DNA of 64,000 nucleotides from Arcobacteraceae bacterium (GCA_963662945.1 OY759974.1:448001-512000), one strand, 5' to 3'. Counted from the stretch's first letter, positions 15,660 to 52,100 are shown. Numbers and translations: made by a program. Notes: generated by a model not told the origin, from the sequence alone.

Positions 15660-15671
15660 TCTCTTATAATT

Positions 15672-16214: not shown

Positions 16215-16217
16215 AAC

Positions 16218-33963: not shown

Positions 33964-34650
33964 ATGAAATTTAATACACTTCATCATGGAAAACTTATAA
34001 AAAGATATAAAAGATTTTTAGCAGACATAGAGCTTGACAATCATGAAATTATAACAGCACACGTGCCAAATAGTGGAGCAATGACCTCTACAATAGAAAC
34101 TAACTGTGACGTTTGGGTAAGTTTTCATGATAATCCCAAAAGGAAACTAAAATACACCCTAGAACTTACAAAATTGTATAATCAATATATTTGTACAAAC
34201 ACTAATGTAGCAAATAAACTAGCCATAGAAGCTATACAAAATGGTACAATTAAAGAATTGCAAAATTATTCAACTTTGAAACCTGAACAAAAATATGGAC
34301 AAAATAGTCGTATCGATATCTTACTTGAGAATGAAAATAAAAAATGTTATGTAGAGGTAAAAAGTGTAACATTAAAAATTGATAACTATTTAGCATTTCC
34401 TGATTCTGTTACATCAAGAGGAGAAAAACATCTTAATGAATTACTTCAAATGGTAAAAGATGGGCATAGAGCAGTTATGCTTTATATTATCCAAAGAACA
34501 GATGATTTACCTTTTAGAATAGCAAATGAGATTGATAAAAAATATTATGAAAGTTTTTTAGAGGTTACAGAACAAGGAGTGGAAGTATTAGTTTATCAAT
34601 CAACTATATCTCAACAAGAAATTGTTATAAATCAAAAAATAGAATTTTAA
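33964..34650 (+). CDS. sfsA: DNA/RNA nuclease SfsA
   Basis: KRYKRFLAD, HVPNSGAM, SRID, YVEVKSVT, FPDSVTSRGEKHL. Confidence 0.93.
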   Translation: MKFNTLHHGKLIKRYKRFLADIELDNHEIITAHVPNSGAMTSTIETNCDVWVSFHDNPKRKLKYTLELTKLYNQYICTNTNVANKLAIEAIQNGTIKELQNYSTLKPEQKYGQNSRIDILLENENKKCYVEVKSVTLKIDNYLAFPDSVTSRGEKHLNELLQMVKDGHRAVMLYIIQRTDDLPFRIANEIDKKYYESFLEVTEQGVEVLVYQSTISQQEIVINQKIEF

Positions 34651-35819: not shown

Positions 35820-36282
35820 TTATATCTTCTATATATTTTGAATATTCTTTAGATAATTGTACGTGGTTCTCTTCTAATCGTTGTTTAATAAATACTATAT
35901 TTGGTCTACTTTTGCTCCAAAAAAATGCTCCATAATATTGCTTATTTACCATAAGCCTTCTATAGTTATTTGTAAAAAAGAGTTTACCTAATTTTTTACA
36001 CTCATTACTTACTAAGCCTTTATTATCAAAAATAAAATTTGCTTCTTTACAATCATCTGTAAGAGTAAAAAATTGAGAATATATCTCTTTTTCTTGTACT
36101 GAAATTTCAGGAATATATAATATTACTTTTTCTTTAAGAGAAGATGTTGCGATTTTTGAAATTATCTTTGCTTCGAATTCTATCTCCTTATCATATGTAT
36201 TAACTAAAAAAACATGTTGTTCACTAAAAGAAAAAGAAATAACTGTTAGTAATAAAATTAGTATTTTCATTAAAACACCCAC
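35812..36282 (-). CDS. Exported hypothetical protein, possibly YfiR/HmsC-like
   Basis: Signal peptide, two Cys, GAFFWSKSRPNIVF; overlaps both neighbours; start may be 36270. Confidence 0.6.
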   Translation of the reverse strand: MGVLMKILILLLTVISFSFSEQHVFLVNTYDKEIEFEAKIISKIATSSLKEKVILYIPEISVQEKEIYSQFFTLTDDCKEANFIFDNKGLVSNECKKLGKLFFTNNYRRLMVNKQYYGAFFWSKSRPNIVFIKQRLEENHVQLSKEYSKYIEDIND

Positions 36283-38198
36283 TTCATACTAAGAGTTACT
36301 TCTCTTTGATAATCTTCTAAAGCAAAAGGAGTTCCCGTAAATAATCCCTCTTTATAAAGTGATTTTGTAGATTTATCAAGAAGATTTTCCCCTTTAAGAC
36401 TTATTGATTGATGTTTTGAAAGATGATAGGTAAATCCTAGATTAAGGTTATAACTATCTTTTACATTAACTGTAGTAAATCTATATGCATTTTTATATAT
36501 TAATGAAGTGAAATAATCAAGTTTATCATATTCACCTGTAAACTTAATATAACCACCTTTATTTGAATTATTTAAAGTTTCACTGAGTTTTGTTGTAAAA
36601 TAATTTAACTCTAATTTATGATTTAATGAAAGCTCATAGGTATAATCAAAAATCCAATTTTTTGTTTTAATTGTATGATCATTAATATTTGTAAAGCCAA
36701 CTGGAGTATAATAAATAAAATTTTCAATCTTAACATCATTATACAAAATACTTAATCGAGATTTTTCATCTGCATATACACCTTCAATAGTGTAATATTT
36801 ATATTCTTGATTTTTAAGATTAAGTCTATTTGGATTTGTAATATCTGAATAATCAATATTATAAAATGATGGTGCTAAAGATGTCTTAGTAACAAAGCTT
36901 TTTAATCCAAAATGTTCTAAAGGGCTATAAATAGCTCCTATTCTATAATGTTCTGTATTAAAATCTTCTAACCCACCATTTCTCTTATATTTATCTACTT
37001 TGGCATTTCCTATTACTAACAAATCATCATGAAGTTTATAATCATCTTGGATAAATAAAGAACTAATAGTTTCTGTATCAAATCCATTAAAAGCTCCAAT
37101 TTCAGTAGTAGTATTAAGAAAATTGACTGTCGTATTTTGTTTTGTTTTATATTTTTTATTTTGAATAGAAGTTCCAATAAGAAAGTTATTACCTCTAATT
37201 GAAAAACTTTTTGATAATAATCCACTATATTTTTTAAATTGAGTATTTTGATAATATTCTTTTGGAATTGTCGTACCTAAACTAGCCATATTCAATGCAG
37301 GTATTATCTCTAACCCAGCACTATTTCGTTCTTCATATTGTAGTTCATTAAAATCATAAGATAAATTTAATTTTAATGATTTATCATCTAAAAAATAGCT
37401 TGTTATATCAAAAAAATAATTTTTTGATTTTATCTTACCATCATCAGGAACTACATCTAAAGCAAATCCTGTATAATTATCTTTTTCTAAATCAGTATAT
37501 CCAAAATTAACACTTGAACTTTCTTTTTGCCCATTAAAATAAAAATAATTCCTACTAGAATTATTATGTAATTGTTGTGTTTTATAATTTTGTTTTTCAT
37601 GTACCTTGCTATTATTAAAATAAGCAAGATATGACCAACCATTGCTTAAAACATCTGCATGACTTATACTTTTAGAATTTGTCCCATGAGAAGCAATAGT
37701 TCCAACTATTTGTGACCCATTCTCTTTTAAAGGGTTTTTTGTATACACTCGTATAAAAAATATCCCTGCATCACTTCCTAATGCAAAAGAACTATTTCCT
37801 CTATATACTTCTATATAATCTACAAAATCTAAAGGAAGATTTATCCATGAGAAAGAGGGAGATTGCATATAGATTGAACTAACTTCATGATCATTGATAA
37901 ACAATCGAAAAAATCCACTTACATCTGTTTTACTTCCAGAGAGAGAAAGATTTGAAACACCTAATTTATTAGTATTAAAATTATTTATTGGAAATTCTTT
38001 TAAAATATCAGAAAGTGTAGTATATTGCATACGTTTTAATTCTTCCTGAGAATAAATAGTCACATTTCCCAATTTTTCATCGACAGTTTTAAGGGATTTT
38101 TTAGTACTTGATTCATACTCTTGAAGTAAAGTATCTATATTTTGAGCATACATAAAATTTATACATATAAAAAAAATAAATAAGATATACTTATACAT
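36270..38198 (-). CDS. TonB-dependent receptor-like outer membrane protein
   Basis: Signal peptide, plug motif VDYIEVYRG, GENLLD, terminal KWVF. Confidence 0.85.
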   Translation of the reverse strand: MYKYILFIFFICINFMYAQNIDTLLQEYESSTKKSLKTVDEKLGNVTIYSQEELKRMQYTTLSDILKEFPINNFNTNKLGVSNLSLSGSKTDVSGFFRLFINDHEVSSIYMQSPSFSWINLPLDFVDYIEVYRGNSSFALGSDAGIFFIRVYTKNPLKENGSQIVGTIASHGTNSKSISHADVLSNGWSYLAYFNNSKVHEKQNYKTQQLHNNSSRNYFYFNGQKESSSVNFGYTDLEKDNYTGFALDVVPDDGKIKSKNYFFDITSYFLDDKSLKLNLSYDFNELQYEERNSAGLEIIPALNMASLGTTIPKEYYQNTQFKKYSGLLSKSFSIRGNNFLIGTSIQNKKYKTKQNTTVNFLNTTTEIGAFNGFDTETISSLFIQDDYKLHDDLLVIGNAKVDKYKRNGGLEDFNTEHYRIGAIYSPLEHFGLKSFVTKTSLAPSFYNIDYSDITNPNRLNLKNQEYKYYTIEGVYADEKSRLSILYNDVKIENFIYYTPVGFTNINDHTIKTKNWIFDYTYELSLNHKLELNYFTTKLSETLNNSNKGGYIKFTGEYDKLDYFTSLIYKNAYRFTTVNVKDSYNLNLGFTYHLSKHQSISLKGENLLDKSTKSLYKEGLFTGTPFALEDYQREVTLSMKWVF

Positions 38199-38251
38199 AA
38201 ATTACTCCACTAAATTTTGCTTATTCTAGTGAAATAATCATTAAAAGATGG

Positions 38252-38626
38252 TTATTGATTTTGATTTTTTAAAAGTATTCTTTTGAGCCAAAGTGGTGCA
38301 TTTCCTTGCATCATTTTTTGTAATGATTGTATCACATCTTCTATTCTTTCAGCTTCATGAGATGACTTCATTGGATAGATACCACACTTTTGTACCATAT
38401 TGGCAGCTTTTGGTCCTATTTGAGATACATAAACGATGTCGCTATCTTCTAAACAATTGATTTTATATTCTAATTTATCCACCTCATCATCAAACTTTAG
38501 TGAAGAATCAACTTCATTAATAAGTTCATAATCATCTTCAGAAACTTCATAAATATAAAACATCTCACACCAACCAAAATGTTGGTTTACATGAACATTA
38601 TCTTTTGATGCAAATGCTATTTTCAT
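38252..38626 (-). CDS. nifX: NifX FeMo-co carrier
   Basis: MKIAFAS.D..HVNQHFG, IGPKAA, APLWLKR. Confidence 0.9.
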   Translation of the reverse strand: MKIAFASKDNVHVNQHFGWCEMFYIYEVSEDDYELINEVDSSLKFDDEVDKLEYKINCLEDSDIVYVSQIGPKAANMVQKCGIYPMKSSHEAERIEDVIQSLQKMMQGNAPLWLKRILLKNQNQ

Positions 38627-38641
38627 AAATTTGTCCTAGTG

Positions 38642-39613
38642 TTAGATAATATATATCTGTATATTCTCATCAATGATTTGAGAAAGTGTATTTTTAATCA
38701 TATCATAAGTACTTGTAGCACCCAAGCTACACCCAGCACAGGCACCTTGATATGCAAGTCTTATTTGAATCTCTGGTTCATTAATATAATCTAAAATCAT
38801 CATATCTCCACCATCTTTTACTAAAATTGGTCGAATATAACGGTCAAGTGCATCTGCTATAAGTTCATATTGCTCTTCATATGATTTTGCTCTAAATACT
38901 TGATTAAGTTCACATGTTTTATTTGGTAATTTATCAACACCACCCATTTGAGCTACTGCCATTGGATGACCAGATAGTGCTGCATTTAACATGGCATTAA
39001 AACCTTCTCTTACTCTATCTTCATTTGTTCTATCTTTTAAAAGAAGAAGCCCTAATCTAAAATTTGCACCTTGATGATTTTTTTTCACTGCAATTCTAAA
39101 ATAATCTATTGCTTTTTCTTCATCCTCTTCTACACCAATTTTTGATTGATACATAAGTGCCAAATTATATGTTGCAGAGTCATTTTCATAAACTGCACCT
39201 TTTTCAAACCACTCTCGAGCTTTGTCAAAGTCTTTTTCTACACCCTCACCTTTTAAGTACATCAAACCAATATTTGCCATTGCTTGGTCATTTTTGAGTT
39301 CTGCTTCTTTTTCCCAAATACTTAATGCTGTTGCAAAATCTTTTGCTCTATATGCTTTTAATGCTTCTCTATGTTCCATAAATCTAATTCCTTCTTTTGG
39401 ATTTGGGATCTCTTTCCCTAACTCTAATTGTTTTTTTATATGCTTTTCTAAATACTCAGTAGCTATCTCTATCGCTTCGTAATAATCTTCACTAGAACCT
39501 TTTATATCAAAGTCAGTATAAACTGCCAAATAAGCATCACCAACCTCATGTTCCCCTGGATAAACTTCAACTGGATAATCCAAACTCATATAGTATTCTA
39601 AATTTTTTTCCAT
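38642..39613 (-). CDS. HicB-like / Sel1-repeat / NifU-C (Nfu) fusion protein
   Basis: YYMSLDYPV..GKEIPNP; Sel1 repeats MYLKGEGVEKD, MYQSKIGVEED; IRPILVKDGGD..YQGACAGC. Confidence 0.8.
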   Translation of the reverse strand: MEKNLEYYMSLDYPVEVYPGEHEVGDAYLAVYTDFDIKGSSEDYYEAIEIATEYLEKHIKKQLELGKEIPNPKEGIRFMEHREALKAYRAKDFATALSIWEKEAELKNDQAMANIGLMYLKGEGVEKDFDKAREWFEKGAVYENDSATYNLALMYQSKIGVEEDEEKAIDYFRIAVKKNHQGANFRLGLLLLKDRTNEDRVREGFNAMLNAALSGHPMAVAQMGGVDKLPNKTCELNQVFRAKSYEEQYELIADALDRYIRPILVKDGGDMMILDYINEPEIQIRLAYQGACAGCSLGATSTYDMIKNTLSQIIDENIQIYII

Positions 39614-39913
39614 CTAGCAACACTCCAACTCAACTTGATCTAGAACTTCTGTACCTTTTTGGAAATCAAACTCTTCAAATAAATCATGGATATAAAACAC
39701 ATTTGCACATACTAAATACAAAGTATCTTTTTCTTCCCCTTTACTCCAAACTTCTCGATAATTTTCTGGTATTTTATCCATAAAATTAACCCATAAACCA
39801 TTTTTCGATTCTGGTTTTGATTCAAAAAGTTCATTCATAGCATCAAGAACCAATGCAGCATTTTCATAACAATCTATATTGTTAAATGTAACATATCTAT
39901 CTTTTACTTCCAT
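39614..39913 (-). CDS. cowN: Nitrogenase CO-protection protein CowN
   Basis: DRYVTF.NIDC, LYLVCANV.YI.DLFE, terminal ELECC. Confidence 0.88.
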   Translation of the reverse strand: MEVKDRYVTFNNIDCYENAALVLDAMNELFESKPESKNGLWVNFMDKIPENYREVWSKGEEKDTLYLVCANVFYIHDLFEEFDFQKGTEVLDQVELECC

Positions 39914-39916
39914 AAT

Positions 39917-40309
39917 TTACTTATTATCCTCACAACCACAACTACAAGTTTCACCCTCACCAGGATTGAGTAGGTTTTTATAATTGTCATTTGTAAGTTT
40001 TACTAGTTTGTTATTATTAAAATTATTACATATATCTTCTATTGAATAAGTATTATAATCAGCAGTGTAAACATCCATACCATTTTTATCAAATGATTTA
40101 TAAACACCTTCACCCATATAATAAAATATAGTAGAATCTACACCTTTTGTTTTTAAGAAATCACCACTTTTAGGTCCTTCCCCTTGAACATCATTTGTTA
40201 TGATTTCATACTTACCTGTATGGGTATCTAGTAGTGCAAAATATGGAACTCTTCCATAAAGTTTTGAAATAGTTGTTGATTCTTTTGTATCGATTGGAAT
40301 TGCTAACAT
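39917..40309 (-). CDS. NifB/NifX-family protein
   Basis: LAIPID..ISKLYGRVPYFAL, MGEGVY..F...G..VY. Confidence 0.8.
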   Translation of the reverse strand: MLAIPIDTKESTTISKLYGRVPYFALLDTHTGKYEIITNDVQGEGPKSGDFLKTKGVDSTIFYYMGEGVYKSFDKNGMDVYTADYNTYSIEDICNNFNNNKLVKLTNDNYKNLLNPGEGETCSCGCEDNK

Positions 40310-40345
40310 TATAAATCCTTTTCTACATTTATATGCTAGTATATT

Positions 40346-40361
40346 TGCATAATCTATTCCC
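40346..40361 (-). promoter_or_regulatory. sigma54 promoter for the cowN/nifX operon, overlapping the upstream gene's 3' end
   Basis: GGGAATAGATTATGCA (GG-N10-GC). Confidence 0.75.
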
Positions 40362-41226
40362 TAAATATTGTTTTATCTCGTCCTGTCAATTTTGCTTTGT
40401 ATAATAACTTATCTGCCTCTTTTAATAAATCATCAATTGTTAGAAAAGTATCATTGTATTGTGCAATTCCACTACTAATAGTAAAATTTACTTTTTTTGA
40501 TTCTACATCTAAAGTATCTGCTTTTATATTATTTCTTATAACTTCAAGAAGTTCAAAAAGTATTGCTTTACTTTCAAAATTACAAACAATTGCAAACTCT
40601 TCACCACCAAGTCGTCCAAATATACTCTGTGATGGAAGCATACTTTGAATCATCTTAGCTATTCTTTTTATCACAATATCCCCAATATGATGTCCATAAG
40701 TATCATTAATACTTTTAAAATTATCAATATCAATCATCACAGCAAATAGATCTTTTTGTTGAAATTCAAATCTTTCTTGTGCTAATTCAAAAAACTTTCT
40801 ACGATTTAAAATACCTGTCATAGTATCATGAGAAGATATATATTCAAGATTTTTTATCATACTTTGTAACTCTAATTGAGTTTTTACTCTAGCCATTAAT
40901 TCTTTAGGTTTAAATGGTTTAGAAACATAATCACTCCCACCAACTTCATAAGCTTTTTCAATACTATCTTCATCTGTTTTTGCAGTAATAAATATTATAG
41001 GAATTGCTTGAGTTTGAGGATTTTGTTTTAATTGTCTACACACTTCATATCCATCTATATTGGGCATCATAATATCAAGAAGTATTAGATTTGGTACCTC
41101 TTCATTTGCTATTTCTATAGCATTTTTTCCATCTAAAGCAACTATAACATCATACTTGTCCCCAAGTAATTCTACTAATATTTTTATATTTATTTTTGTA
41201 TCATCAATAACCAATATGGTTTCCAC
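40354..41226 (-). CDS. REC-GGDEF response regulator diguanylate cyclase
   Basis: ILVIDD, LLDIMMP, KPF; DIDNFK, RLGGEEF; no RxxD I-site. Confidence 0.92.
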   Translation of the reverse strand: METILVIDDTKINIKILVELLGDKYDVIVALDGKNAIEIANEEVPNLILLDIMMPNIDGYEVCRQLKQNPQTQAIPIIFITAKTDEDSIEKAYEVGGSDYVSKPFKPKELMARVKTQLELQSMIKNLEYISSHDTMTGILNRRKFFELAQERFEFQQKDLFAVMIDIDNFKSINDTYGHHIGDIVIKRIAKMIQSMLPSQSIFGRLGGEEFAIVCNFESKAILFELLEVIRNNIKADTLDVESKKVNFTISSGIAQYNDTFLTIDDLLKEADKLLYKAKLTGRDKTIFRE

Positions 41227-41235
41227 AATTTTCCT

Positions 41236-44151
41236 TTATATGAGTGCAAGAAGTTCTAAAGCCTTTTGAAAATCAAATTTTTCTGTACATTGCTTTATGT
41301 GATTAAAATTTATTTGTTCCTTTTTTGAAAGCTTATATTGATTTAGTTCCTCTAGTACCTTTTCAATATTTTTAGGTCTTTTAGAATGTAAAGTCTCTTC
41401 AAGTTTTTTACACAACTCTTTTTTCTTTTCACTTGTTAAGATCTCTTTTGGGTTCATAGATGACTCGTTTTGAAAACTCAACTGTTCTAATTCCTCAATT
41501 ACTTTATTCGTTTCTTTATAAAGTTTATCAATTAAACTTGAATCATTTTTATTTTCAACTTCTTGTATAATTTTATTAAGATTAATAGCCCCTATATTAG
41601 CGCTTAATCCCTTCATAGTATGTAAAACTCTTTTTTTCTCTTCATCTTCTAAATTATCTATAGTAAAACTTTTATAATCTTGATAAAAAGTATTTAATAC
41701 TTTCAGATATAACTCTTTATTATTGGCTAAATGTTTTAATCCATTTATTGTATCTATATATTTAAAATTCGGTAATTTTATTAGCTCTTGATTTTCTACA
41801 ATTTTATCTAGAGAAAGATATTTTCTTAATGTTGTATATAGTTTTTTTACTTCAATTGGTTTATTTAAGTGTTCTTGCATCCCTGCAGCTTTTGTTGCTT
41901 CGATATCCTCTTTCATCGCATTAGCAGTTAATGCAATAATAGGTATATTTTTATTAATCTTTTTTATATGTTTAGTTGCTTCATATCCATCCATTATTGG
42001 CATCTGAATATCCATAAGGATCAATTGATATTTATTTTTATTTTTTTGAAATATCTCTAAAGCTTCTTTCCCATTTGATGCTATATCTATTGTTATTTCG
42101 CTTTGCTCTAACAGCCCTACAACTATCTCTTGATTCATTTTATTATCTTCAACTAATAATATATGCTTTCCACTAAAAGGAATAGTTTGCACTTCTCTTT
42201 TTATAACTGTTTTATTTAAATCTTCAATATTAAAATCTTTAATAAATATATCACTTAAAATATCATTTAATAAAGAGGGATTCACAGGCTTTTGCAAAAA
42301 TAATTTTATACCAACTTCTCTTGCTAATTGGACTATTGATTCTTGTCTAAAGCTACTAACCATTATTACAGTTGGAGGCTTTTTGCCCTTATACTGTTCA
42401 TTGATAATTCTTGTTGTTTCTATACCATCAAGTTCAGGCATATTCCAATCCATAAGTATAAGATCATAATCGATATTACCTTTTTTCAGATGTTCTATCG
42501 CTTCATTTCCACTTTTTACACCATATACTTTGATATTAAACATACCCAAAATATTTTCAAGAACTTCATGCCAAGTTTCATTGTCATCTACAACTAATAC
42601 TTTTTTATCAGGAAAAATATTATATTTTTTTGTTTCATTTTTTTCTTCTAATTCAATTTCAAATATGAAAGAACTTCCAACTCCATATTCACTCTCAATC
42701 CATATTTTACCATTCATCAACTCTACAAGCTGTTTTGATATGGTTAGACCTAAACCCGTACCTCCATATTTTCTTGTAGTACTTCCATCTGCTTGTGAAA
42801 AAGACTCAAATAGTTTTGATTGTTGCTCTTGGGTTAAACCAATTCCTGTATCTTTTACCTCAAATTTATATCTGTTTCGAGATGCTTTTGAAATATATAA
42901 ACCAACTTCACCCTCTTGTGTAAATTTTACTGCATTAGCTAAAAGATTTGTAAGAATTTGTGAAAGTCGTAAATTGTCCCCATAAAACTTTTTACCTATA
43001 CTTGTATCATAACTCACAATAAGTTCAAGATTTTTTTCGTGAAGTTTAAACTCTATGATATTAACTACATTTTCTATAGTTTTAAAAAGATCAAAATCAA
43101 CCTTATCAATAGAGAGTTTTCCAGCCTCAATTTTAGAAAAATCTAATATATCATTAATAATAGAGAGAAGTGTTTTTGCACTATGATCTATCTTTTGTAT
43201 ATAATTTTTTTGTCTCTCATTAAGGTCTGTTTGCAGTGCCAGATGAGACATACCAATAATACCATTCATAGGTGTTCGTATCTCATGAGACATATTTGCT
43301 AAAAATTCTGATTTTGATTTTGTAGACTCTTCTGCTTTAACTTTAGCGATTTCAAGCTCTTTGGTTCTATTTTCAACCTTCTTTTCTAAACTTTCATTAA
43401 GATCTTTTAATTGAGAATATGAATGATTGAGTTTTTTAGTCATATTTGAAAATGTTTTTGCTAAAATTCCAACTTCACCTTTTGTAGTTATATTATCCAA
43501 TTCCTCTTTAATATTATTTTTTCCCTCTGAGACCCTTTGTGCAATATCTGTTAAAAGTATAATTGGTCGAATAAGTCTTTGAGCAAATATATAACCTAAA
43601 AATGAGAAAAATAAAGCTATAGAAAGTGCTGTAATAAGTGATGTTTTAATATTAGTGTATATTTTCTTTTCAATATCTTGCTGCGCTTTATCTACTTCAA
43701 TATTCAATTTTGTTAAAGGATAAACAATACTCAATGTACCCCATTTTTGAAATAATTGAATAGGTGTAGAGATAACAATATCGTTATTCAGCTCTTTAAT
43801 AGTAACTTTATCGACGGACATTTTGTAAATACGCCCTTCAAATATTTGAACTGTATTATCAACATTATTTAACACTATACCATCTATCTCATCTCTACTT
43901 ATTAAGTTTTTAAATATTGTGTTTATATGAGATAAATTTAATGAAGCAATATCATTTTCAATCTCTTTTTTATAATACTCTATTGTCTGATTTGCATTAA
44001 ATTTTAAATTTGATTTCATTAAAGAGATTCTTTTATCAAGTTCATTATTCATTATCTCAATTTGCTCATTAATATTTTTAACAGTAAATATTACTGTGAT
44101 TGAAATTACTATTATTAATATATTTGAAATTAATTTACTCTTTAAACTCAC
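41236..44151 (-). CDS. Hybrid histidine kinase (2 TM, HAMP, HisKA, HATPase, 2 REC, Hpt)
   Basis: [51 protein letters not shown]. Confidence 0.93.
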
Positions 44152-45020
44152 TCTAATACCTTATTAACAAGAGATAATCCATTTTTATTATACTTTAAAT
44201 TTAACTTGTCTGCTATTTTCTTATTAAAAATCACATTTGTACCCATTGGCATTTGAATAGGTGTAAATTCTTTCTTTTGCTCATATTGATTTATCATTGA
44301 AGCTATTTGTCGACCTATTGTAGGATTATCTGCTGATATTATTAATGTTGCATCATATTTTAAAAATAATTCATGATATGCAAAGAGAGGCTTTTTTGCC
44401 ATTGTAACTTTTTCAAAAAGTGATAAAACTTTTTTTTCATCTTTTAATAATAATGGATCAGCAATTAAAATTAAACCATCACTCTCTTGAATTTTATCAA
44501 TATCTATCTCATTATCTTCAGTCATCTCTTCACCTATTATTTTTATACCTATTAATAAGGCATTTTGTTTGAAGTTTTCATAGAGTTCTTTTGTATAAGA
44601 GCTATAAACAATAGTTAACTTTTTAGTATCTGGAAAAAGTGATTTAATAATAGTTAAATTCATACCCGCATGAAGTTCATTGGAAACACCAAATCTATTT
44701 TTTATCAAATCTAATCTTTTATAGTTTACAATCGAACTAAAAAATAATGTTTTTTCAGGGATATACATATCTACATATTTGTATGCTTTTGTTCCTATTG
44801 CATAAACAATATCAGGATACTCATCATATAAATACTCTTTAATTTGTTTATTTGTCATTTTAGAAATATCCAAAGATTTATAATCACCTATAAAATTTTC
44901 TTTAAATGATCTCTCTACACTTGAATATTTTTCGATATTATTATTTGAGTTCAATACTAAAATCTTCTCAGCAAATAAAAAGGAGATGGTAAAAAGGGAT
45001 ATTGTAATTAAAAACTTCAT
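44148..45020 (-). CDS. Periplasmic ABC-substrate-binding-like protein
   Basis: Signal peptide; [34 protein letters not shown] resemble the ABC_sub_bind family. Confidence 0.7.
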
Positions 45021-45784
45021 TTTACACCCCCTAGAATTTTATTATAGTCATTTTTTGTTAGTATAACGATATCATCAATACCTAACAAATTTAATATCTT
45101 TTTACCATATAAATCTGAATTCATAGACTTAAATAAATTAATACATTCCTTACTATATTGATTTTTTAATTTTGAAGCTATAAGCATTCTAAAATTAGGT
45201 TTTGATTCTTTATAAATAATCATTTGCTTTGCTAAAAAGCCATTTACATTTTTTAATAACTCAAAGCTATCTTTTGATACTAAAGCAAACTTGCTTAATC
45301 CAAATCCAACAGACATTAAAGCATCAATCTCTTTTGGTACATTTAAAATATTTAAATTATTATTTTCTATAAGTGTATCGATAAGTTTTCTTGAATAATC
45401 TTGAGAGTACGTTGTAGTGATGGTTCCATCAAATTGTAAACCCTTTTTACCTACAATTATTTTAGTATCTGTCATACTCTCTCTTTTTAAAGCAACGAGC
45501 TTTGCTTCTAAGTCATATTTTTTAGCAATTTGTTTATAGTGCCAGCTTGAGAGAATAACAATAATATCTTGATTTTTTAAAAACTGCTCAAAGATCTCTT
45601 TTTTGTTAAAAGGTTGAAAATCATAGTCTCCATATTGACTTAAATATTGCTCAAAAGTAACTTTTAATGACTTAAAATCATTTACATTTGCTTCTGTTGT
45701 ATAAAAATATATTTTTTTAGGCTCAGCAAAGAGAGTATTTGACAATAAGAAGATAAGGAATATTAAATATTTTATTTTAACCAT
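45017..45784 (-). CDS. Periplasmic solute-binding-like protein (PhnD-like, tentative)
   Basis: Signal peptide; KEIDALMSVGFG..ALV, M....GKKILNLLGID. Confidence 0.55.
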   Translation of the reverse strand: MVKIKYLIFLIFLLSNTLFAEPKKIYFYTTEANVNDFKSLKVTFEQYLSQYGDYDFQPFNKKEIFEQFLKNQDIIVILSSWHYKQIAKKYDLEAKLVALKRESMTDTKIIVGKKGLQFDGTITTTYSQDYSRKLIDTLIENNNLNILNVPKEIDALMSVGFGLSKFALVSKDSFELLKNVNGFLAKQMIIYKESKPNFRMLIASKLKNQYSKECINLFKSMNSDLYGKKILNLLGIDDIVILTKNDYNKILGGVK

Positions 45785-46998
45785 GGTTGGGTATATTTAT
45801 CCTCTCCACCTAGTGAACTATTCATTATTTCCCAATTTGCAATAAGTCCAGGGCAATTTTTAACATTTTTAGGTGCATCGATAGCTACTACATAGAGATT
45901 AATTGTTTCAACTTCAGGGTCATTAAATAATTCTTGTAATTGTGTAACATCACAAATTTTTATTTCAGGTTTTGAAGAAGCCTCTTTTTTATAAATCACT
46001 TCTGGCAAATAACAAATTGAATCAGGTCCCATTATGTATGGTTTTTCTATCTCATTACTTTGCGTATCTATAATAATATTAGCATAAATATTTTCATTTG
46101 CAGTATATGCTTTAAAAGAACTATTTTTGTAAAGATTTAATCCTTCTATTGTTAATATCCCGATATCTTCACCATGAATTGGTTTGGAATCTATTTTAGT
46201 TAATGTCCCATAAAAAATATCTTTTGTAAATCTTTTCTCTTTACTGTCATTATTCATATAACTAATGATTTTTGTTAAGCGAGTTTCAGTTGTCTTCTGT
46301 GTTTCTATAATAATTCCAATATTATAAGAATCTGTTAATGTATCTTTTACTACATACTCATTTTTAAGATTTTCTTTCTTCGTTGGATATAATGAAAAAC
46401 CACCACTATTTTTAAATGCACTTGAAGTAAACATCTCTCCAAAACACTCTTGAACATGATCTAAACTTTCAAGATTATAAGAGGAAAAATAAGGAACTTC
46501 ATTTCCACTTGCAATAAAATTTGGATAAAATTTACAGTTATAACCAGCAAAAAGTGTTAAAGGTAAAGTTGGTGTTGCTCTACCTGAGGGATCTGCATCT
46601 ATTACTTTTAAGGTTTTTCCTTTATTTTTTGCTAATTTACAAGCAATAATAGGTAAAACAGAGTTTACTGTTCCAACCTCCATAGGGAGAATATATTTAA
46701 ACTCATCAAAATCTTTCTCATTGCAGCTACACCAGTGTTCTATTATTTCAATTACATTTAATATTGACTTGTTAAGTTCTGCTGGATGAAATGAAGCACT
46801 AGGTAAACCCATTCCTGAAGTTGGTACTATCCAATCGGCATTTTCAATACTATCAAAAGATACAACTTCAACAAAGTCATCTACAGTGAAATTTGCATCG
46901 ATACAACTTTGCCCAAGTGCTAAAGGTCCCCCTCCTCCAGAGGCTAAAAAACAAGCTCCATTGAGTATATATTCAAGTTCTTTTTTACCTACTGTCAT
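45772..46998 (-). CDS. DUF917 family protein
   Basis: LEYILNGACFLASGGGG, GMGLPS, PMEVGTVNS, VIDADPSGRATP.L, MGPDSIC; no signal peptide. Confidence 0.8.
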   Translation of the reverse strand: MTVGKKELEYILNGACFLASGGGGPLALGQSCIDANFTVDDFVEVVSFDSIENADWIVPTSGMGLPSASFHPAELNKSILNVIEIIEHWCSCNEKDFDEFKYILPMEVGTVNSVLPIIACKLAKNKGKTLKVIDADPSGRATPTLPLTLFAGYNCKFYPNFIASGNEVPYFSSYNLESLDHVQECFGEMFTSSAFKNSGGFSLYPTKKENLKNEYVVKDTLTDSYNIGIIIETQKTTETRLTKIISYMNNDSKEKRFTKDIFYGTLTKIDSKPIHGEDIGILTIEGLNLYKNSSFKAYTANENIYANIIIDTQSNEIEKPYIMGPDSICYLPEVIYKKEASSKPEIKICDVTQLQELFNDPEVETINLYVVAIDAPKNVKNCPGLIANWEIMNSSLGGEDKYTQPWLK

Positions 46999-47014
46999 CT
47001 TTTCTCCTTATTTT

Positions 47015-48955
47015 TTAGAATGTATATTTAAGCTCAAACATAAAGTTTCTGCCATCTTTTTCATAATCATCAACAGTAAATCCAACTCGAGAGGGGTCAT
47101 ATGCTTCTTTATCAAAAAGATTATTTATGGTTGCTTTTAATTCAAGATTTTTATAGAAATTTTTTAATTGCATTGAAACATTTACCAAAGCATAACCTGC
47201 TACATCAGCTCTACTATCTCCTGATATTCTTTTCATTTTACCTCTTAGTTCAATATGATTATTAATATTTAAAAACTTATTAATTTTATAGTTGAAAAAT
47301 ATATTCCCTTTATGTTTTGCAATATCTGCCAAATCTGTATTGTTGATTTTATCTTTAGCTTTTTGATAGGTATAATTTGCCATAAGATATGATCCTCTAG
47401 TTAAATCATACTTAGTCTCAATTTCAATACCCTCAGAAGAAGTTTCACCTTGATTTATATAAATAGTTCCACTTTGAATAATTAAGTTATCAAAATCATT
47501 ATTAAAATAGGTTATTTTAGAGTTTAGATTAGCTATTGAACTATTTTCATAAGACAATTCATAAGTTTTAACCTTTTCAGGTGTCAGATTGGTGTTTCCT
47601 TGTATTACTGCTGAAGCATTATATGATTCTGCAAAAGTTGGCGTTCTAAACCCTTCTCCATAGATCGCTTTTAATATATTATTGTTATTAATTTGCCAAC
47701 TTAATCCACCTCTTGGTGCAGTATTGGAACCAAAATCACTATAATTATCATGTCTTATTCCAACTGTTAATCTTATATTATTACTTAAGTCATAAATATT
47801 ATTAGTATAGAGTGCCCACATATTTCTATTTACATTAGGAGCAAAAGTATTTGAAGTGTTAGATAAATTGACAGAGTTTACAATTGTTTCAACATCATAC
47901 TGTTTATGTTTTTCATATGTCGCACCTAAGATAGAAGTCAATTTTGTATTTACTTTATATGTTAAGAGTGATTCTATACCATTTTTTTCATTTGTAAGAG
48001 AGTTTCTCATTTTTAAATCAGCAGGCACAGTTAAAAGGTGCCAATAGTTATTAAACTTGTATTTATCAAAATATAATCTTGTAGATAGATTTAATTTTTC
48101 TGTTATTTGTTTATTATTGCCTGTTTCAATGAATAGGTAATCTAATTTTGGATCATTCTCTACTGCAATCTCTCCTAAAGGTCCAAAATGCTCCCCATCA
48201 TCTCTATTTAAATACATAGACTTCAAATAAAAATCTTTATAATCAATTTTTATATTAGCTGTTAATTGCTTTAAATATGGATTATTAGTAGCACTTTTAT
48301 TTGCTCTATCTTGTTTAATATAAACCTTATTTCCATCAGTATCTTTTACATTTATATTTGCAACTAAAGATAACTCATCAAATTGTTTACCATATAATAA
48401 ATTTATCTCTTTTGTATTATATGAACCTATTTTACTATTTACAATTACTCCATTGATATCTGCGGCATCTTTTGTAATTATATTTATCAACGCTGTAAAT
48501 GCATTTGCTCCATATAAAGCAGATGCTGGTCCTTTGACTATTTCTACTCTTTTTATATTATCTAATGAGATTTTGTCTAAGATTGGAGCAGCACCTCCAT
48601 TTAATAATAAAGCATCTATAGAATGACCATCAATCATAAATAATACTTGTTTTGAAGTAAAGTCTTTAATTCCCCTTACTTCGATTTCATTGAAAAATAT
48701 ATTCCCTTGTGTCACACTAATACCTGGAACTGTATTTAATAATTCTGATATATTTTTTACACCTGACACCTCTATCATCTCTTCATCAATAACATTCACA
48801 GAAGCAGATGTTTTTTTAATATTTTCTTTTACCCTTGAAGCAGAAACAACAAATGTTTCCTCTTCTAACCATTGCATCTCATCTTGCAAAGTTGTTTCAA
48901 AAGGATTAGCAAATAGTAGAGTAGGTAAAAATATATATAACAGTTTTTTTATCAT
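47015..48955 (-). CDS. TonB-dependent receptor
   Basis: Signal peptide; VVSASR, RVEIVKGPASALYGANA..INIITK, NNLFD, terminal KYTF. Confidence 0.92.
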   Translation of the reverse strand: MIKKLLYIFLPTLLFANPFETTLQDEMQWLEEETFVVSASRVKENIKKTSASVNVIDEEMIEVSGVKNISELLNTVPGISVTQGNIFFNEIEVRGIKDFTSKQVLFMIDGHSIDALLLNGGAAPILDKISLDNIKRVEIVKGPASALYGANAFTALINIITKDAADINGVIVNSKIGSYNTKEINLLYGKQFDELSLVANINVKDTDGNKVYIKQDRANKSATNNPYLKQLTANIKIDYKDFYLKSMYLNRDDGEHFGPLGEIAVENDPKLDYLFIETGNNKQITEKLNLSTRLYFDKYKFNNYWHLLTVPADLKMRNSLTNEKNGIESLLTYKVNTKLTSILGATYEKHKQYDVETIVNSVNLSNTSNTFAPNVNRNMWALYTNNIYDLSNNIRLTVGIRHDNYSDFGSNTAPRGGLSWQINNNNILKAIYGEGFRTPTFAESYNASAVIQGNTNLTPEKVKTYELSYENSSIANLNSKITYFNNDFDNLIIQSGTIYINQGETSSEGIEIETKYDLTRGSYLMANYTYQKAKDKINNTDLADIAKHKGNIFFNYKINKFLNINNHIELRGKMKRISGDSRADVAGYALVNVSMQLKNFYKNLELKATINNLFDKEAYDPSRVGFTVDDYEKDGRNFMFELKYTF

Positions 48956-49149
48956 AAAATTTCCAATAATAATCTTTTTCGATTTAGTATGGTATCACAA
49001 ACAAGTTTTAAAATACTAATCAAACTTTAATCCAATAACTTTAAACACTCTCTAGTTTCATTAAAATTACATTTTAAACTATACTTTTTTAGCAAATTAA
49101 ACCATAACAAATTAGCCTTATAAAGCTCATATATCCTTTAAATATACAA

Positions 49150-49165
49150 CGGAATATCTTATGCA
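49150..49165 (+). promoter_or_regulatory. sigma54 promoter of nifE
   Basis: CGGAATATCTTATGCA (GG-N10-GC). Confidence 0.8.
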
Positions 49166-49199
49166 TACTTATTATTAATACTACTAGCGGAGTACAAAG

Positions 49200-50552
49200 A
49201 TGATGGTAAACAAAAAACAAATCAGAGAACTTCTGAACGAATCAGCCTGTTCCCACAATGAGAAAAAAAAATCAAGCTGTGACAAACCAAAGCCAGGTGC
49301 TACAAGTGGTGGTTGTGCTTTTGAAGGTGCACAAATAGCCCTATTTCCTTATGCGGATGCAGCTCATTTAGTACATGCCCCAGCAACCTGTCAAGGAGCA
49401 AGTTGGGAAACAAGAGCCACGCCAACTAGTTGGGAAGGTGAAAATAATACTCCACTTGGATACTGTACCGATGTAACAACAAATGATGTTATCTTTGGTG
49501 GAGATCAAAAACTTGAAGATAGTATCAGTTATATTTGTGAAGTAAAAAAACCAAAAGCAGTATTTGTCTATGAAACTTGTGTAACAGCTATGATTGGCGA
49601 TGATATGGATAATGTTGCCAAAAGAATGGAAGAGAAATATAATATTCCAATTGTAGTAGTTCATGCACCAGGATTTGTAGGGAGTAAAAACTTAGGAAGC
49701 CGTTTAGGTGGAGAAGCTGTTTTACATCAACTAATAGGAACAAGAGAGCCAGAAGAGATACATCCATTTGGAATTAACTTAATCGGTGAATACAATGTAA
49801 CAGGCGATATGTGGCAATACACCCCTATCTTAGAAAAAATAGGGATAAAAGTTGTTTCAACTCTAGCTGGTGATGGAAGAATTGAAAATATCCAAATGGC
49901 ACATAGAGCAAAACTTAATGTAATCGTATGTGCAAAATCACTTGTAACATTAGTACGAAAAATGGAAGAGAAATACGGTATTCCACATATCTCTGTTTCT
50001 TTTTATGGTAAACGTGATACTACAAATGCCATCATGTCTATAGTCAATGCTTTTGGAGATGAAACATTGACAAAAAAAGCACTTGAAATTATAAAAGAGG
50101 AAGAGGAAGCTTTAGAACAAAGACTTCTTCCTTATAGAAAAATATTAGCTGGAAAAAAAGCTATTCTTAATACTGGTGGAAATAAATCTTGGTCAATAGC
50201 ATCAGCACTACAAGATATAGGAATCGAAGTGGTTGCTACAAGTATTAGAAAATCGACTTTAGAAGATATAGAGATTGCAAAAAAATATGTTCCAATCTTA
50301 ATGAAAGTTCCAGCAAATGAACAAGCTGCACTTATAGATGAACACAAAGTTGATATACTTCTAGCAGGTGGAAGAAGTTTATATACAGCTATCAAGAAAA
50401 AAGTGGCTTTCGTGGATGTAAATCAAGAGAAAAAAGTAAGCTATGGTGCGTATGGTGGCCTAGAAAACTTAGCTATAGATGTGTGTGCTGCCGTATTAAA
50501 TCCAGTATTTAAAACAGTAGGAGAACCAGCTCCATGGGATGAGAGCTGTTAA
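49200..50552 (+). CDS. nifE: FeMo-co scaffold subunit NifE
   Basis: PGATSGGCAFEGAQ, YETCVTAMIGDD, GSKNLGSR, TGGNKSWS, PAPW. Confidence 0.95.
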   Translation: MMVNKKQIRELLNESACSHNEKKKSSCDKPKPGATSGGCAFEGAQIALFPYADAAHLVHAPATCQGASWETRATPTSWEGENNTPLGYCTDVTTNDVIFGGDQKLEDSISYICEVKKPKAVFVYETCVTAMIGDDMDNVAKRMEEKYNIPIVVVHAPGFVGSKNLGSRLGGEAVLHQLIGTREPEEIHPFGINLIGEYNVTGDMWQYTPILEKIGIKVVSTLAGDGRIENIQMAHRAKLNVIVCAKSLVTLVRKMEEKYGIPHISVSFYGKRDTTNAIMSIVNAFGDETLTKKALEIIKEEEEALEQRLLPYRKILAGKKAILNTGGNKSWSIASALQDIGIEVVATSIRKSTLEDIEIAKKYVPILMKVPANEQAALIDEHKVDILLAGGRSLYTAIKKKVAFVDVNQEKKVSYGAYGGLENLAIDVCAAVLNPVFKTVGEPAPWDESC

Positions 50553-50553
50553 G

Positions 50554-50580
50554 AAAAAGACAATAGTTTGTCTTTTTTCT
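50554..50580 (+). terminator. Hairpin/terminator right after nifE
   Basis: AAAAAGACAA-TAGT-TTGTCTTTTT. Confidence 0.6.
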
Positions 50581-50684
50581 CAAAGAGAGTGCAAGCACAA
50601 GAAGCTCGGAACTGGAACGGTCATAACGAAGTGAAGCCGTGGAAGATAGCGAATAATTTATTCTTCCTATGATATACTCATTGC

Positions 50685-52100
50685 ATGAAAATATTATTAA
50701 CAGGTGCAAACGGATATATTGGAAGAAGAGTTAAAAATATACTCAAAACCAATCCAAATATCAAACTAAAACTTTTTGTTAGAAATAAACAATCACTATC
50801 GCAAGAGATACTACAAACTTGTGAAGTAATAGAGGGTGATACCTTTAATCTTGATGCTTTAAAAGAAGCACTTAAAGATGTAGATGTAGCATACTATTTC
50901 ATACATTCATTAAATAATGAAAACTATAAAGAACTAGATAAAATATCCGCACAAAACTTTATCCAAACAGCAGAACAATGTGGTGTAAAAAGAGTTATTT
51001 ATCTAGGTGGGCTTGGTGTAAAAGATGAAAATACAAGTGAACATCTTTTAAGTAGACTTGAAACTGGAGAGGTTTTAAGTTCCTCATCAAAAGTGCAAAC
51101 TATTTGGATAAGAGCTGGAGTGATTATAGGTTCTGGAAGTGCTAGTTTTGAGATTATTAGAAATTTAGTTGAGAAACTTCCTGTGATGATAACCCCAAAA
51201 TGGGTAGATACTTATGCACAGCCAATAGCTGTAGATGATGTTATAAACTATCTCATCGCAGCTATAACACTTGAATATGACAAAAATGTAATAGTAGATA
51301 TAGGTACTACAAAAATGAAATACAAAGACCTTATGCTACAAACAGCGGTTGCCTTAGGTTTAAAGAGGTATTTGATTCCTGTCCCTTTTATGAGTATCAA
51401 TATCTCTTCTTATTGGTTAAATCTTTTCACACCTGTCCCATTTACTGTTGCTAAAGCATTAATTGAGGGATTGAAATCAGAAGTTACAATGCAAAATGAC
51501 AATGCAAAAAAATACTTTCCACAAATAACACCTCTTAATTATATTCAAGCTGTTAAAAAAGCTGTTGCAGAGATAGAACAAAATCAAGTGGTAAGTAGAT
51601 GGAGTGATGCCGATGGAAGTAGTTGGGATAAGACACATAGAAAACAGATACATGATGCTATTTTTGTAGATAGAGTTGAGGCTGATATTAGTTCTTATGA
51701 TAAAGCAAAAGTATTTCATGCTGTTAAATCAATAGGTGGAAAAAATGGCTGGTTTGATTATAGCTATTTATGGAGAATACGGGGTTTTATTGATAAACTT
51801 ATTGGTGGAGTTGGATTGAGTCGTGGACGAAGAGATACTTGCGATATCAGACTTGGTGAATGTTTAGATTTTTGGAGAGTAGAAGATATAAAAGAGAATG
51901 AAAGGCTCCTACTCTTTGCACAGATGAAACTACCAGGGGAAGCGTGGCTTGAATTTAAAATTCAAGATAATAAACTTATCCAATCTGCATACTTCTATCC
52001 TCGAGGTATTTGGGGAAGAGTATATTGGTATAGTATGATTCCTATGCACTATTTTATTTTTAAAAATATGATAAAAGGTATTTTAAAAAATAGTGAATAA
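50685..52100 (+). CDS. SDR/NAD(P)-binding epimerase family with C-terminal DUF2867 (YbjT-like)
   Basis: TGANGYIG, GSGSASFE, IGGKNGW, LDFWRVE, AQMKLPGEAWLEF. Confidence 0.88.
   Translation: MKILLTGANGYIGRRVKNILKTNPNIKLKLFVRNKQSLSQEILQTCEVIEGDTFNLDALKEALKDVDVAYYFIHSLNNENYKELDKISAQNFIQTAEQCGVKRVIYLGGLGVKDENTSEHLLSRLETGEVLSSSSKVQTIWIRAGVIIGSGSASFEIIRNLVEKLPVMITPKWVDTYAQPIAVDDVINYLIAAITLEYDKNVIVDIGTTKMKYKDLMLQTAVALGLKRYLIPVPFMSINISSYWLNLFTPVPFTVAKALIEGLKSEVTMQNDNAKKYFPQITPLNYIQAVKKAVAEIEQNQVVSRWSDADGSSWDKTHRKQIHDAIFVDRVEADISSYDKAKVFHAVKSIGGKNGWFDYSYLWRIRGFIDKLIGGVGLSRGRRDTCDIRLGECLDFWRVEDIKENERLLLFAQMKLPGEAWLEFKIQDNKLIQSAYFYPRGIWGRVYWYSMIPMHYFIFKNMIKGILKNSE

Follow-up and report, generated by a model that had tools for sequence, protein, structure and literature searches.

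A variable enzyme slot in a TonB receptor, solute-binding protein and histidine kinase operon: a candidate trans-envelope sensor with c-di-GMP output

Why should the gene for an apparently cytoplasmic enzyme of the DUF917 family be embedded among genes that look like the parts of a trans-envelope signalling pathway? The question is raised by a six-gene operon (40354-48955, strand -) in a 64,000-nt stretch of an Arcobacteraceae genome (GCA_963662945.1 OY759974.1:448001-512000), which, at its full length, we call the window. The operon begins with a TonB-dependent receptor (TBDR; 47015..48955, 646 aa, Plug and barrel by Pfam) and continues with the DUF917 / S-Me-THD-like protein (45772..46998, 408 aa, PF06032 and PF20906); a PhnD-like, PF12974-related solute-binding protein (SBP) that we call P255 (45017..45784, 255 aa); a second SBP, SBP290, of the PF04392 (ABC_sub_bind) family (44148..45020, 290 aa); a hybrid sensor histidine kinase (41236..44151, 971 aa, HAMP-HisKA-HATPase-REC-REC-Hpt by Pfam); and a REC-GGDEF response regulator/diguanylate cyclase (40354..41226, 290 aa) with a GGEEF motif. 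All six lie on the minus strand, and both SBPs carry an N-terminal hydrophobic segment. The junctions measure +16 nt (TBDR/DUF917), -13 nt (DUF917/P255), -4 nt (P255/SBP290), -4 nt (SBP290/kinase) and +9 nt (kinase/REC-GGDEF). The original prediction for this DNA, made by reading the sequence, had described six co-oriented genes with overlaps or gaps below 20 nt; the open reading frames lie exactly where it placed them, and coordinates, strand, domains and junctions are all confirmed.

We suggest, tentatively and with somewhat less than even confidence, that the operon encodes a trans-envelope, SBP-dependent two-component sensor with cyclic di-GMP (c-di-GMP) output, in which the enzyme whose gene separates the TBDR from P255 produces or converts the ligand, forming a self-signal circuit. 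The directly observed part of the case comprises the gene content, its conservation, the variation in the enzyme slot and the restriction of both slot enzymes to genomes that bear the module. The gene arrangement is more than chance, since dozens of independent loci repeat it. A search of genome contigs with the P255 alignment returned 171 relatives, the best 80 of which were analysed (24 Campylobacterota-like loci and 56 others), together with 80 metagenome loci (23 and 57, respectively), some of which duplicate genome loci (L106 matches L024, and the DUF917 of L109 is identical to that of L026). These loci were annotated with local profiles, using seven queries, and, many contigs being short, the counts that follow are floors. 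P255 is followed by an SBP290 homologue in 23 of the 24 Campylobacterota-like genome loci and 51 of the 56 others; a TBDR is present in 20/24 and 36/56, and a kinase, REC or GGDEF gene in 22/24 and 35/56. Among the metagenome loci the adjacent SBP pair occurs in 19/23 and 46/57. TBDR orthologues, 39-86% identical to that of the window, head the related operons.

Carriers of this core include Campylobacterota, Thermodesulfobacteriota, Brocadiaceae, Methylococcales, Thiomargarita, Acidobacteria, Gemmatimonadota, SAR324 and Moduliflexota; a PhnD-like SBP, a PF04392 SBP, a TBDR and a sensor kinase co-occur across at least seven phyla. We conclude that these four parts make up an ancient, widespread sensing core that has so far gone undescribed. 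In the literature covered, from which subscription journals and supplements were missing, we found no description of a two-SBP module, no DUF917 in a signalling operon and no cyclodipeptide synthase (CDPS) beside a TBDR and kinase; nor did that literature contain a predicted heterodimer between SBPs of unrelated families or an enzyme slot common to DUF917 and CDPS.

What varies is the content of the slot. Among the 24 Campylobacterota-like genome loci it holds DUF917 in 15, a CDPS in 4 and nothing in 5, and DUF917 is found in 13 of the 23 Campylobacterota-like metagenome loci; in Campylobacterota it always lies between the TBDR and P255. The slot CDPS proteins (L029, L034, L035 and L036) are of ~240 aa, score 84.9-97.4 bits against PF16715 (cut-off 27) and have a cyclo(Leu-Leu) synthase as their best PDB match (E 3.9e-15). 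In two of the loci with an empty slot, L024 and L028, the stop of the TBDR and the start of P255 are 14-23 nt apart. Nearer to the window genome (G000), DUF917 was found in 6 of 60 further relatives searched, all 6 within the window's genus, and the five complete loci among these six all read TBDR-DUF917-P255-SBP290-kinase. The two enzymes rarely meet: no CDPS was found in the window genome and five DUF917-bearing congeners (0/6), and no DUF917 in the genomes with a CDPS in the slot (0/4). A CDPS can produce only a cyclodipeptide. Because it makes nothing else, and because CDPS and DUF917 replace each other in one slot, we read the slot enzyme as a producer or converter of the ligand.

The restriction of the enzymes to module-bearing genomes is clearest in Sulfurimonadaceae. 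Among 301 genomes of this family the P255 module is present in 14. DUF917 (PF06032) occurs in 8/301, all within the 14 and each ~1 kb upstream on the P255 contig, and CDPS in 5/301, as 6 genes, again all within the 14 and all beside module genes. The 287 module-less genomes contain neither. The slot accounts for four of the six CDPS genes; the fifth is found 2.3 kb downstream of the module in L037, and the sixth belongs to a second locus of genome G333. This second, reduced module (L219 4126-7824, G333:C55) consists of a TBDR (+), a CDPS on the opposite strand and an SBP290 homologue (+); it lacks P255 and has no kinase next to it. Because related genomes are not independent, the restriction counts overstate their statistical weight; moreover, 4 of the 5 CDPS genomes entered the sample through P255, which biases the module frequency and leaves the conditional pattern as it is. 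Both points tell against the reading that we favour. Its strongest argument is positional, namely the shared slot, the near-exclusive swap and the absence of either enzyme from module-less Sulfurimonadaceae.

Might the enzymes simply be passengers? The junction between TBDR and P255 could be a permissive insertion point under a good promoter, with DUF917 and CDPS having no functional tie to the sensor. In a maximum-likelihood tree of concatenated P255 and SBP290 the slot states are interleaved, requiring 12 changes against a minimum of 4, and sister loci differ in their slots: L026 (DUF917 B) and L038 (DUF917 A; SH-aLRT 98), L024 (empty) and L030 (DUF917 B; SH-aLRT 100), and L029 (CDPS) and L039 (DUF917 B; SH-aLRT 90). 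Such frequent changes would suit passengers, as would the lack of a slot enzyme in every module outside Campylobacterota and in several within it, and the one DUF917 copy that is split (L037 6883-7988, overlapping open reading frames of 217 and 151 aa with an ATGA junction), the product either of a frameshift or of an assembly error in a metagenome-assembled genome. We nevertheless consider this explanation distinctly improbable. Both enzymes are found only in module-bearing genomes of the 301, beside the module or on the P255 contig; the DUF917 stop overlaps the P255 start by 13 nt; the second CDPS of G333 is again flanked by a TBDR and an SBP290 homologue; related clades of DUF917 in Gammaproteobacteria are found next to GGDEF genes; and the operon clade of DUF917 has persisted through deep divergence with 20 invariant columns.

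The DUF917 tree unites all 24 operon copies in a single clade (SH-aLRT 100) that splits deeply into three subclades. These supersede an earlier sorting into two types by identity; the window copy belongs to subtype A. Because the copies form one clade, and because identity between the subclades is ~30% where the flanking SBPs retain 57-67% within the genus, we conclude that there was one capture of DUF917 in Campylobacterota, with strong divergence and exchange, loss or replacement in place thereafter. The original prediction had named absence of DUF917 from orthologous operons as the mark of a one-off insertion. The gene is indeed absent from all modules outside Campylobacterota (0/56 genome loci, 0/57 metagenome loci and 0/5 whole genomes of other phyla with the module) and from 9 of the 24 Campylobacterota-like genome loci, but with 15/24 and 13/23 loci occupied by members of a single clade it is not a one-off. 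We also considered whether the TBDR co-varies with the DUF917 subtype and dropped the idea: subtype A loci of Sulfuricurvum have TBDRs 39-43% identical to that of the window and subtype C loci 54-57%. Because TBDR identity does not track the subtype, a simple argument from co-varying pherotypes was not kept as evidence.

The DUF917 protein itself is a member of its family, with 85.6 bits for PF06032 and 53.4 bits for PF20906 (cut-offs 27). A profile search finds PDB 2o3i as a full-length homologue (E 6.7e-64), and the AF2 model (pLDDT 93.4) superimposes on it with Z 45 and an rmsd of 2.3 A over 358 residues. This structure is CV_3147 of Chromobacterium violaceum, of unassigned function, which shares the fold over its full length at an identity of ~20% to the window protein. 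Wider searches with the model (Foldseek and VIA-align) returned only 2o3i, the next best match (Z 4.9) being uninformative on chemistry. A hydropathy scan finds no hydrophobic segment, and the protein is probably cytoplasmic. Because 20 columns are invariant across the DUF917 alignment, including the GGGG loop, E107, R140, N301-E302 and D326, the alignment suggests that the protein stays functional.

Does this enzyme make the ligand or destroy it? As a consumer, DUF917 would be a cytoplasmic ring-opening or desulfurising hydrolase acting on the sensed heterocycle, either to quench and reset the signal or to harvest nitrogen, and CDPS would be a separate innovation at the same insertion point. 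The sole family-level biochemical labels, Pfam S-Me-THD and the NCBIfam thiohydantoin desulfurase entry NF058529, are hydrolytic or desulfurising and favour a degrading role, which counts against a producer; the window protein reaches 21.9 bits against the NF058529 cut-off of 440, over residues 5-69 only. The neighbourhoods of DUF917 elsewhere point in the same direction. Among 400 Gammaproteobacteria genomes 15 match the DUF917 alignment, with one further genome unscored, and in six of ten of the best loci, chosen leaving out a 1.8-kb contig and weaker matches, a hydantoinase-A-like gene adjoins DUF917, in one together with an NCS1 permease, which bears out the company that the original prediction gave as usual for the family. 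The nitrogen-stress surroundings of the operon in G000 and G013 (nifE, nifHDK, glnA, amtB, PII) could also suit a nitrogen harvester. According to one preprint, DUF917 genes are enriched in cyclodipeptide-oxidase clusters that lack a CDPS, and their products are called uncharacterised probable hydantoinases (10.1101/2023.09.25.559410).

Several observations nonetheless lead us to consider a consumer unlikely, although it is the main rival and the other alternatives are weaker. The hydantoinase-linked DUF917 proteins of the Gammaproteobacteria loci are short forms. Three of the ten loci lack a hydantoinase, encode proteins of 392-406 aa and are among the five best-scoring matches; in L194 and L195, near-copies of one arrangement, DUF917 is directly beside a PAS-PAS-GGDEF-EAL gene, and in L197 it is beside PAS-GGDEF. 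The remaining locus has neither context. In the tree the GGDEF-linked clade and the operon clade group together in the non-hydantoinase part (SH-aLRT 91 and 96), and the hydantoinase-linked forms are placed outside it. The window genome contains no Hydantoinase_A (PF01968) and no NCS1 (PF02133) gene, in agreement with the earlier remark that DUF917 usually sits with these partners and does not do so here, and the operon and its surroundings offer no inner-membrane importer for a substrate. The nif neighbourhood is not kept in other loci, and a near-exclusive swap with a pure synthase is easier to explain if both enzymes do the same job. A further match, to the N-terminal part of DUF917 (L189, G519:C3:235052-235816; profile positions 4-274), is contained in an open frame of 992 aa that may encode a fusion protein.

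The earlier claim that DUF917 makes or destroys the signal has thus gained indirect backing, from the swap with CDPS in the slot, the restriction within 301 genomes and the GGDEF neighbours in 3/10 Gammaproteobacteria loci, and no proof; its role in ligand supply is plausible but unproven.

If the slot enzyme supplies a ligand, the two SBPs are the obvious candidates to capture it. P255 has no Pfam match of its own at E <= 0.01, and a genome-wide PF12974 scan also misses it, but 30 of 35 aligned relatives match PF12974 (Phosphonate-bd), with a best E of 9.9e-10. A homologue search returned 118 relatives of P255. A PDB sequence search with the P255 profile gave no match at E <= 0.1. SBP290 scores 49.3 bits against PF04392 (gathering score 25.9), matches 3lkv (E 2.3e-5) and 3lft (E 0.014) in the PDB and is the only PF04392 protein encoded in the window genome. 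With their hydrophobic N-termini, the two proteins fit the description of exported binding-protein-like products given by the original prediction. A Pfam scan of the operon also bears out its statement that no ABC permease or ATPase is encoded there; the nearest ABC genes form a mod-like set at 14793-18056. The usual partners of PF04392 proteins, in COG2984/COG4120 operons, are permeases of the PF02653 type, and none scores above the cut-off anywhere in the genome (best 14.7 bits against 26.8). SBP290 is an orphan for which the genome encodes no cognate permease, and both SBPs look like signalling rather than transport proteins.

A plain transport function would have the SBPs feed an ABC importer encoded elsewhere, with the kinase sensing something else and DUF917 metabolising the imported substrate. 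Both SBP families were first defined from ABC transporters, and the genome does encode BPD_transp_1 permeases, for example at the mod locus, as well as five other strong PF12974 PhnD-like proteins (L205-L209 in G000, E 1e-33 to 4e-49, at 1.98-2.31 Mb). We give this alternative hardly any credence, given the missing PF02653-type permease, the 4-nt overlap of the SBP290 and kinase genes and the company of kinases and TBDRs that the SBP pair keeps across 160 loci; no permease appeared among the neighbours scanned by Pfam, and the seven-query local scans would not flag permeases.

We suggest instead that the two SBPs act together. In a complex prediction with mature P255 (21-255) and mature SBP290 (18-290), each with its own alignment, the pair reached an ipSAE of 0.88 in three runs compared to 0.00 for the best of three controls. 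In the calibration 58 of 80 solved complexes attained this mark, as did 2 of 110 mismatched pairs; these counts apply only roughly here, since the prediction used alignments of our own. The three runs share at least 95% of contacts, with a partner pLDDT of at least 89. The predicted interface is formed by residues 147-164 of P255 and residues 231-241 and 256-262 of SBP290, stretches that hold most of the invariant or nearly invariant columns of both families, including the invariant 147-164 motif of P255. P255 and SBP290 thus probably form a heterodimer, as far as prediction can indicate. We know of no solved complex between the PhnD-like and PF04392 families.

On the outer side of the envelope, the TBDR scores 86 bits for the Plug (PF07715, cut-off 23.9) and 156.5 bits for the barrel that follows it (PF00593, cut-off 27), both above the Pfam gathering scores, and falls under every NCBIfam equivalog cut-off. 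Its barrel is of the 22-strand type. From the residues themselves we read a likely signal peptide at the N-terminus, where the hydropathy scan flagged nothing, and a TonB-box-like motif, ETFVVSAS. Pfam lists Plug, barrel and OMP_b-brl_3 only, with the Plug beginning at residue 46 and no STN signalling domain, and no sigma or anti-sigma genes were seen in 34-52 kb, so that the receptor lacks the features of a FecA-type transducer.

On the inner side, the kinase has hydrophobic segments at 1-19 and 168-186 that enclose a ~140-aa, presumably periplasmic, stretch. HisKA, HATPase and both receivers are found and the Hpt domain is weak (21.8 bits against a cut-off of 24.6), together giving the architecture of a hybrid phosphorelay kinase; its nearest NCBIfam likenesses are BarA, TorS (430.4 against 676.5) and LuxQ (371.8 against 1200), all under cut-off. 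In related loci, too, a kinase with HAMP near residue 190 comes after the SBP pair. The REC-GGDEF protein scores 103 bits for PF00072 and 131.5 bits for PF00990, has an intact GGEEF and is PleD-like in domain composition, although under the PleD equivalog cut-off (259.6 against 474). It is likely the end of the phosphorelay in the window genome, and REC-GGDEF also follows the kinase in L010, L027, L029, L037, L039, L115 and L117. Other loci have REC-GGDEF-EAL, REC-GAF-SpoIIE, a GAF-cyclase or sigma-54 activators as outputs besides REC-GGDEF.

How far the operon is a unit can be judged from its closest relatives, L008 (genome G013) and L098 (a metagenome contig). A blastn comparison of the window reveals a conserved block at 41255..49102 (7.85 kb, ~91% nucleotide identity) that opens ~150 nt before the start of the TBDR and closes at the 3' end of the kinase. 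REC-GGDEF lies outside this conserved five-gene block from TBDR to kinase. The proposal that the receptor and binding proteins feed a kinase and through it c-di-GMP therefore stands in part: domain architecture, orphan SBPs, the predicted pair and the Cycloclasticus precedent discussed below support it, and the position of REC-GGDEF beyond the block does not. The upstream nifE neighbour is common to G013 and not to L098, where positions 185-1087, upstream of the TBDR, are the 3' part of another hybrid kinase with 72% DNA identity to the operon kinase. Thus, with a kinase fragment in place of nifE, the block sits in different contexts.

These elements suggest the following mechanism. A small ligand would cross the outer membrane through the TBDR and be captured in the periplasm by the predicted P255-SBP290 heterodimer; the loaded pair would dock on the ~140-residue periplasmic stretch of the kinase, and a His-Asp-His phosphorelay would end on the adjacent REC-GGDEF, a putative partner, and raise c-di-GMP. 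The slot enzyme, DUF917 or CDPS, would produce the operon's own ligand or convert it in a last step, so that the operon might work as an autoinducer-like self-signal circuit. The ligand would then belong among the small cyclic-amide heterocycles, like diketopiperazines and hydantoins, and would probably carry an aromatic or hydrophobic side chain. The three PF04392 proteins whose structures have been solved have L-Trp, L-Tyr and L-Phe as ligands (PMC10443332), and this aromatic amino-acid preference and the link of DUF917 to cyclodipeptide-oxidase clusters point to the same kind of chemistry.

Several points weigh against this mechanism. There is no slot enzyme in 113 of 113 loci outside Campylobacterota and in 5 of 24 inside; because most modules have an empty slot, the sensor works without a slot enzyme and may sense an external compound. 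Neither an exporter nor an inner-membrane importer is encoded in the operon, leaving the route between a cytoplasmic product and a periplasmic ligand unexplained, and the output includes no transcription factor and no evident autoinduction loop. In L008 and L098 no REC-GGDEF gene comes after the kinase, and the downstream nif genes are likewise outside the block common to these relatives. The one genome with both enzymes, that of L037, has its CDPS 2.3 kb downstream, past a UvrD-like gene, and the CDPS wedged between the second TBDR and the SBP290 homologue in L219 is on the opposite strand. The P255-SBP290 pairing is a model confidence and not a measurement, and more generally ligand, enzyme activity, contacts and transcript all rest on sequence and prediction.

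The boundaries of the transcript bear on the same issue. The co-directional run on the minus strand extends past the sixth gene through seven more genes, down to 34647, with gaps of 44, 3, 0, 15, 53, -13 and -8 nt, and no minus-strand terminator-like site was found by a scan of 34000-50000. Because the run continues and no such site interrupts it, the transcription unit is not delimited. The stretch is AT-rich (GC 0.24-0.35); a sigma-70 scan counted 99 promoter-like sites where 114 were expected, and the one terminator-like site lies on the plus strand. Of the sequencing runs that contain the stretch, six, from two studies, are of DNA; no RNA run was listed. The sigma-54 consensus TGG-N8-TTGCW gave 13 matches against 3.8 expected, with none in the TBDR-nifE spacer; the sole match inside the operon, 40591-40606, is the coding sequence of GGEEFA, and a sigma-54 promoter for the operon was set aside.

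The genome, a single contig of 2.50 Mb that is 99.99% complete, places the operon in a nitrogen-fixation region. Divergent nifE lies upstream (49200-50552, by Pfam and NCBIfam); a nifX-like gene, cowN, a Sel1-NifU gene and nifX follow downstream on the operon's strand; and nifHDK, mod-like ABC genes, glnA, amtB, PII, nifU, nifS and nifQ are farther away in the window. On the plus strand at 49200-52100, the gene after nifE is not nifN but an NAD-binding/DUF2867 gene, with hypF next, and neither nifN nor nifB was seen among the window open reading frames scanned. Given these surroundings, the system might sense an iron, molybdenum or vanadium chelate tied to the metal demand of nitrogenase, with the slot enzyme helping to make the chelator. 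TBDRs are the classic gates for metallophores, and cyclo(Leu-Leu), the product of the synthases closest to the slot CDPS, is the CDPS-derived precursor of the iron chelator pulcherriminic acid. The block abuts nifE among mod, nifHDK, nifX, cowN and nifU genes, and it is beside nifE in G013 as well. The nif linkage is however confined to G000 and G013, other loci adjoining SelO, SOD, helicase or hydrogenase genes, and there is no inner-membrane metal importer. The oxidases and P450s that accompany CDPS loci, among them the tailoring enzymes that such a chelator would call for, were not seen among the neighbours scanned by Pfam. The PF04392 ligands on record, as given in the source cited above, are aromatic amino acids (PMC10443332). 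We regard a metallophore sensor as highly unlikely.

The nif region of the window contains further c-di-GMP genes. Downstream of nifX a second TBDR-linked set occupies 34647-38198 (strand -) and comprises a TBDR in which Pfam finds only the Plug (36270-38198), an exported 156-aa protein with no Pfam match (35812-36282) and a two-transmembrane GGDEF protein (34647-35819), the genes overlapping by 13 and 8 nt, so that two TBDR-to-c-di-GMP sets flank the nifX-cowN genes. At 23777-25189 (+), between nifH and PII/amtB, is a MASE10 protein with an HD-GYP-type (HD_5) domain, likely a c-di-GMP phosphodiesterase and the third c-di-GMP gene of the nif region.

Taken to its full extent, our proposal would be that in sulfur-oxidising Campylobacterota a cytoplasmic CDPS or DUF917 makes a cyclic-amide signal that is taken up again through the TBDR and read by the SBP heterodimer and kinase to set c-di-GMP, a kind of self-signalling circuit not seen before, with the DUF917 clade forming a new class of signal synthase able to replace CDPS and its three deep subtypes, exchanged between closely related operons, acting as pherotype-like dialects. 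As a whole this extended version seems to us rather improbable. The core proposal has wider implications even so. It points to a widespread and apparently undescribed envelope sensor, whose carriers range from sulfur oxidisers and sulfate reducers to anammox bacteria, methanotrophs and Acidobacteria. It also places DUF917, a large family whose biochemistry is almost blank, in a concrete and testable setting as an operon-only clade that is positionally interchangeable with CDPS and akin to clades linked to PAS-GGDEF genes. If the slot enzyme does make the ligand, the operon would be a case of a cyclodipeptide-type self-signal whose receptor is identified from genomic context, and a rare one of TonB-dependent uptake that serves signalling and not nutrition; the CDPS-bearing operons provide a direct route to the ligand class.

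How does the proposed sensor compare with systems already known? In LuxP/LuxQ and TorT/TorS a periplasmic binding protein sits on the sensor domain of a hybrid kinase and drives a multi-step phosphorelay, as we propose here; those systems differ in their single SBP of another family, in having no TBDR and in their outputs, LuxU/LuxO or TorR. FecA/FecR/FecI resembles the operon in that an outer-membrane TonB-dependent protein starts a trans-envelope signal, but it does so through an N-terminal signalling domain of the TBDR, an anti-sigma factor and an ECF sigma factor. The window TBDR, in contrast, consists of Plug and barrel only, and its relay partners would be the SBPs and the kinase. For the slot, the comparison is with the CDPS family (AlbC, YvmC and cyclo(Leu-Leu) synthases; PF16715), which shares the position of DUF917 without being homologous to it. 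Closer to P255, the PF12974 protein AioX signals to the kinase AioS in the arsenite-sensing AioX/AioS/AioR system (PMC8050422) and so offers a PhnD-like periplasmic protein that serves a membrane histidine kinase instead of transport; the system has no TBDR, second SBP or enzyme slot, an oxyanion ligand and a transcription factor as output.

The original prediction knew of no characterised system with this layout, and on this point it needs correction, as a signalling cluster of TBDR, SBP and kinase has been characterised in Cycloclasticus (PMC10570129). In Cycloclasticus sp. P1 the TBDR PahS (687 aa), the periplasmic SBP PahP (318 aa) and the kinase PahK (771 aa) are encoded together, the TBDR gene being followed by the SBP and kinase genes as in the window, where the same three kinds of gene are also found together. 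The paper names no Pfam family or template for PahP, and an attempt to place it in PF04392 was abandoned. The differences are informative. The Pah system has a single SBP and not a PhnD-like and PF04392 pair, its regulator is GacA-type and encoded elsewhere, its ligands are polycyclic aromatic hydrocarbons, it has no enzyme slot, and PahK is said to be without a periplasmic sensor domain, whereas the window kinase has ~140 periplasmic residues by hydropathy. Conserved clusters with a Pah-like layout were also observed in Methylococcales genomes of 1.8-2.5 Mb (L251-L257). They encode a TBDR of 686-698 aa, a PF04392-family SBP of 317-334 aa that is not accompanied by P255, and a kinase/GGDEF protein of ~1480 aa compared to 771 aa for PahK. 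In the Pah pathway, PahP takes polycyclic aromatic hydrocarbons from PahS and docks on PahK, signalling is independent of transport, and the pathway is tied to c-di-GMP (PMC10570129). PahS/PahP/PahK is the nearest functional counterpart of the sensing core described here.

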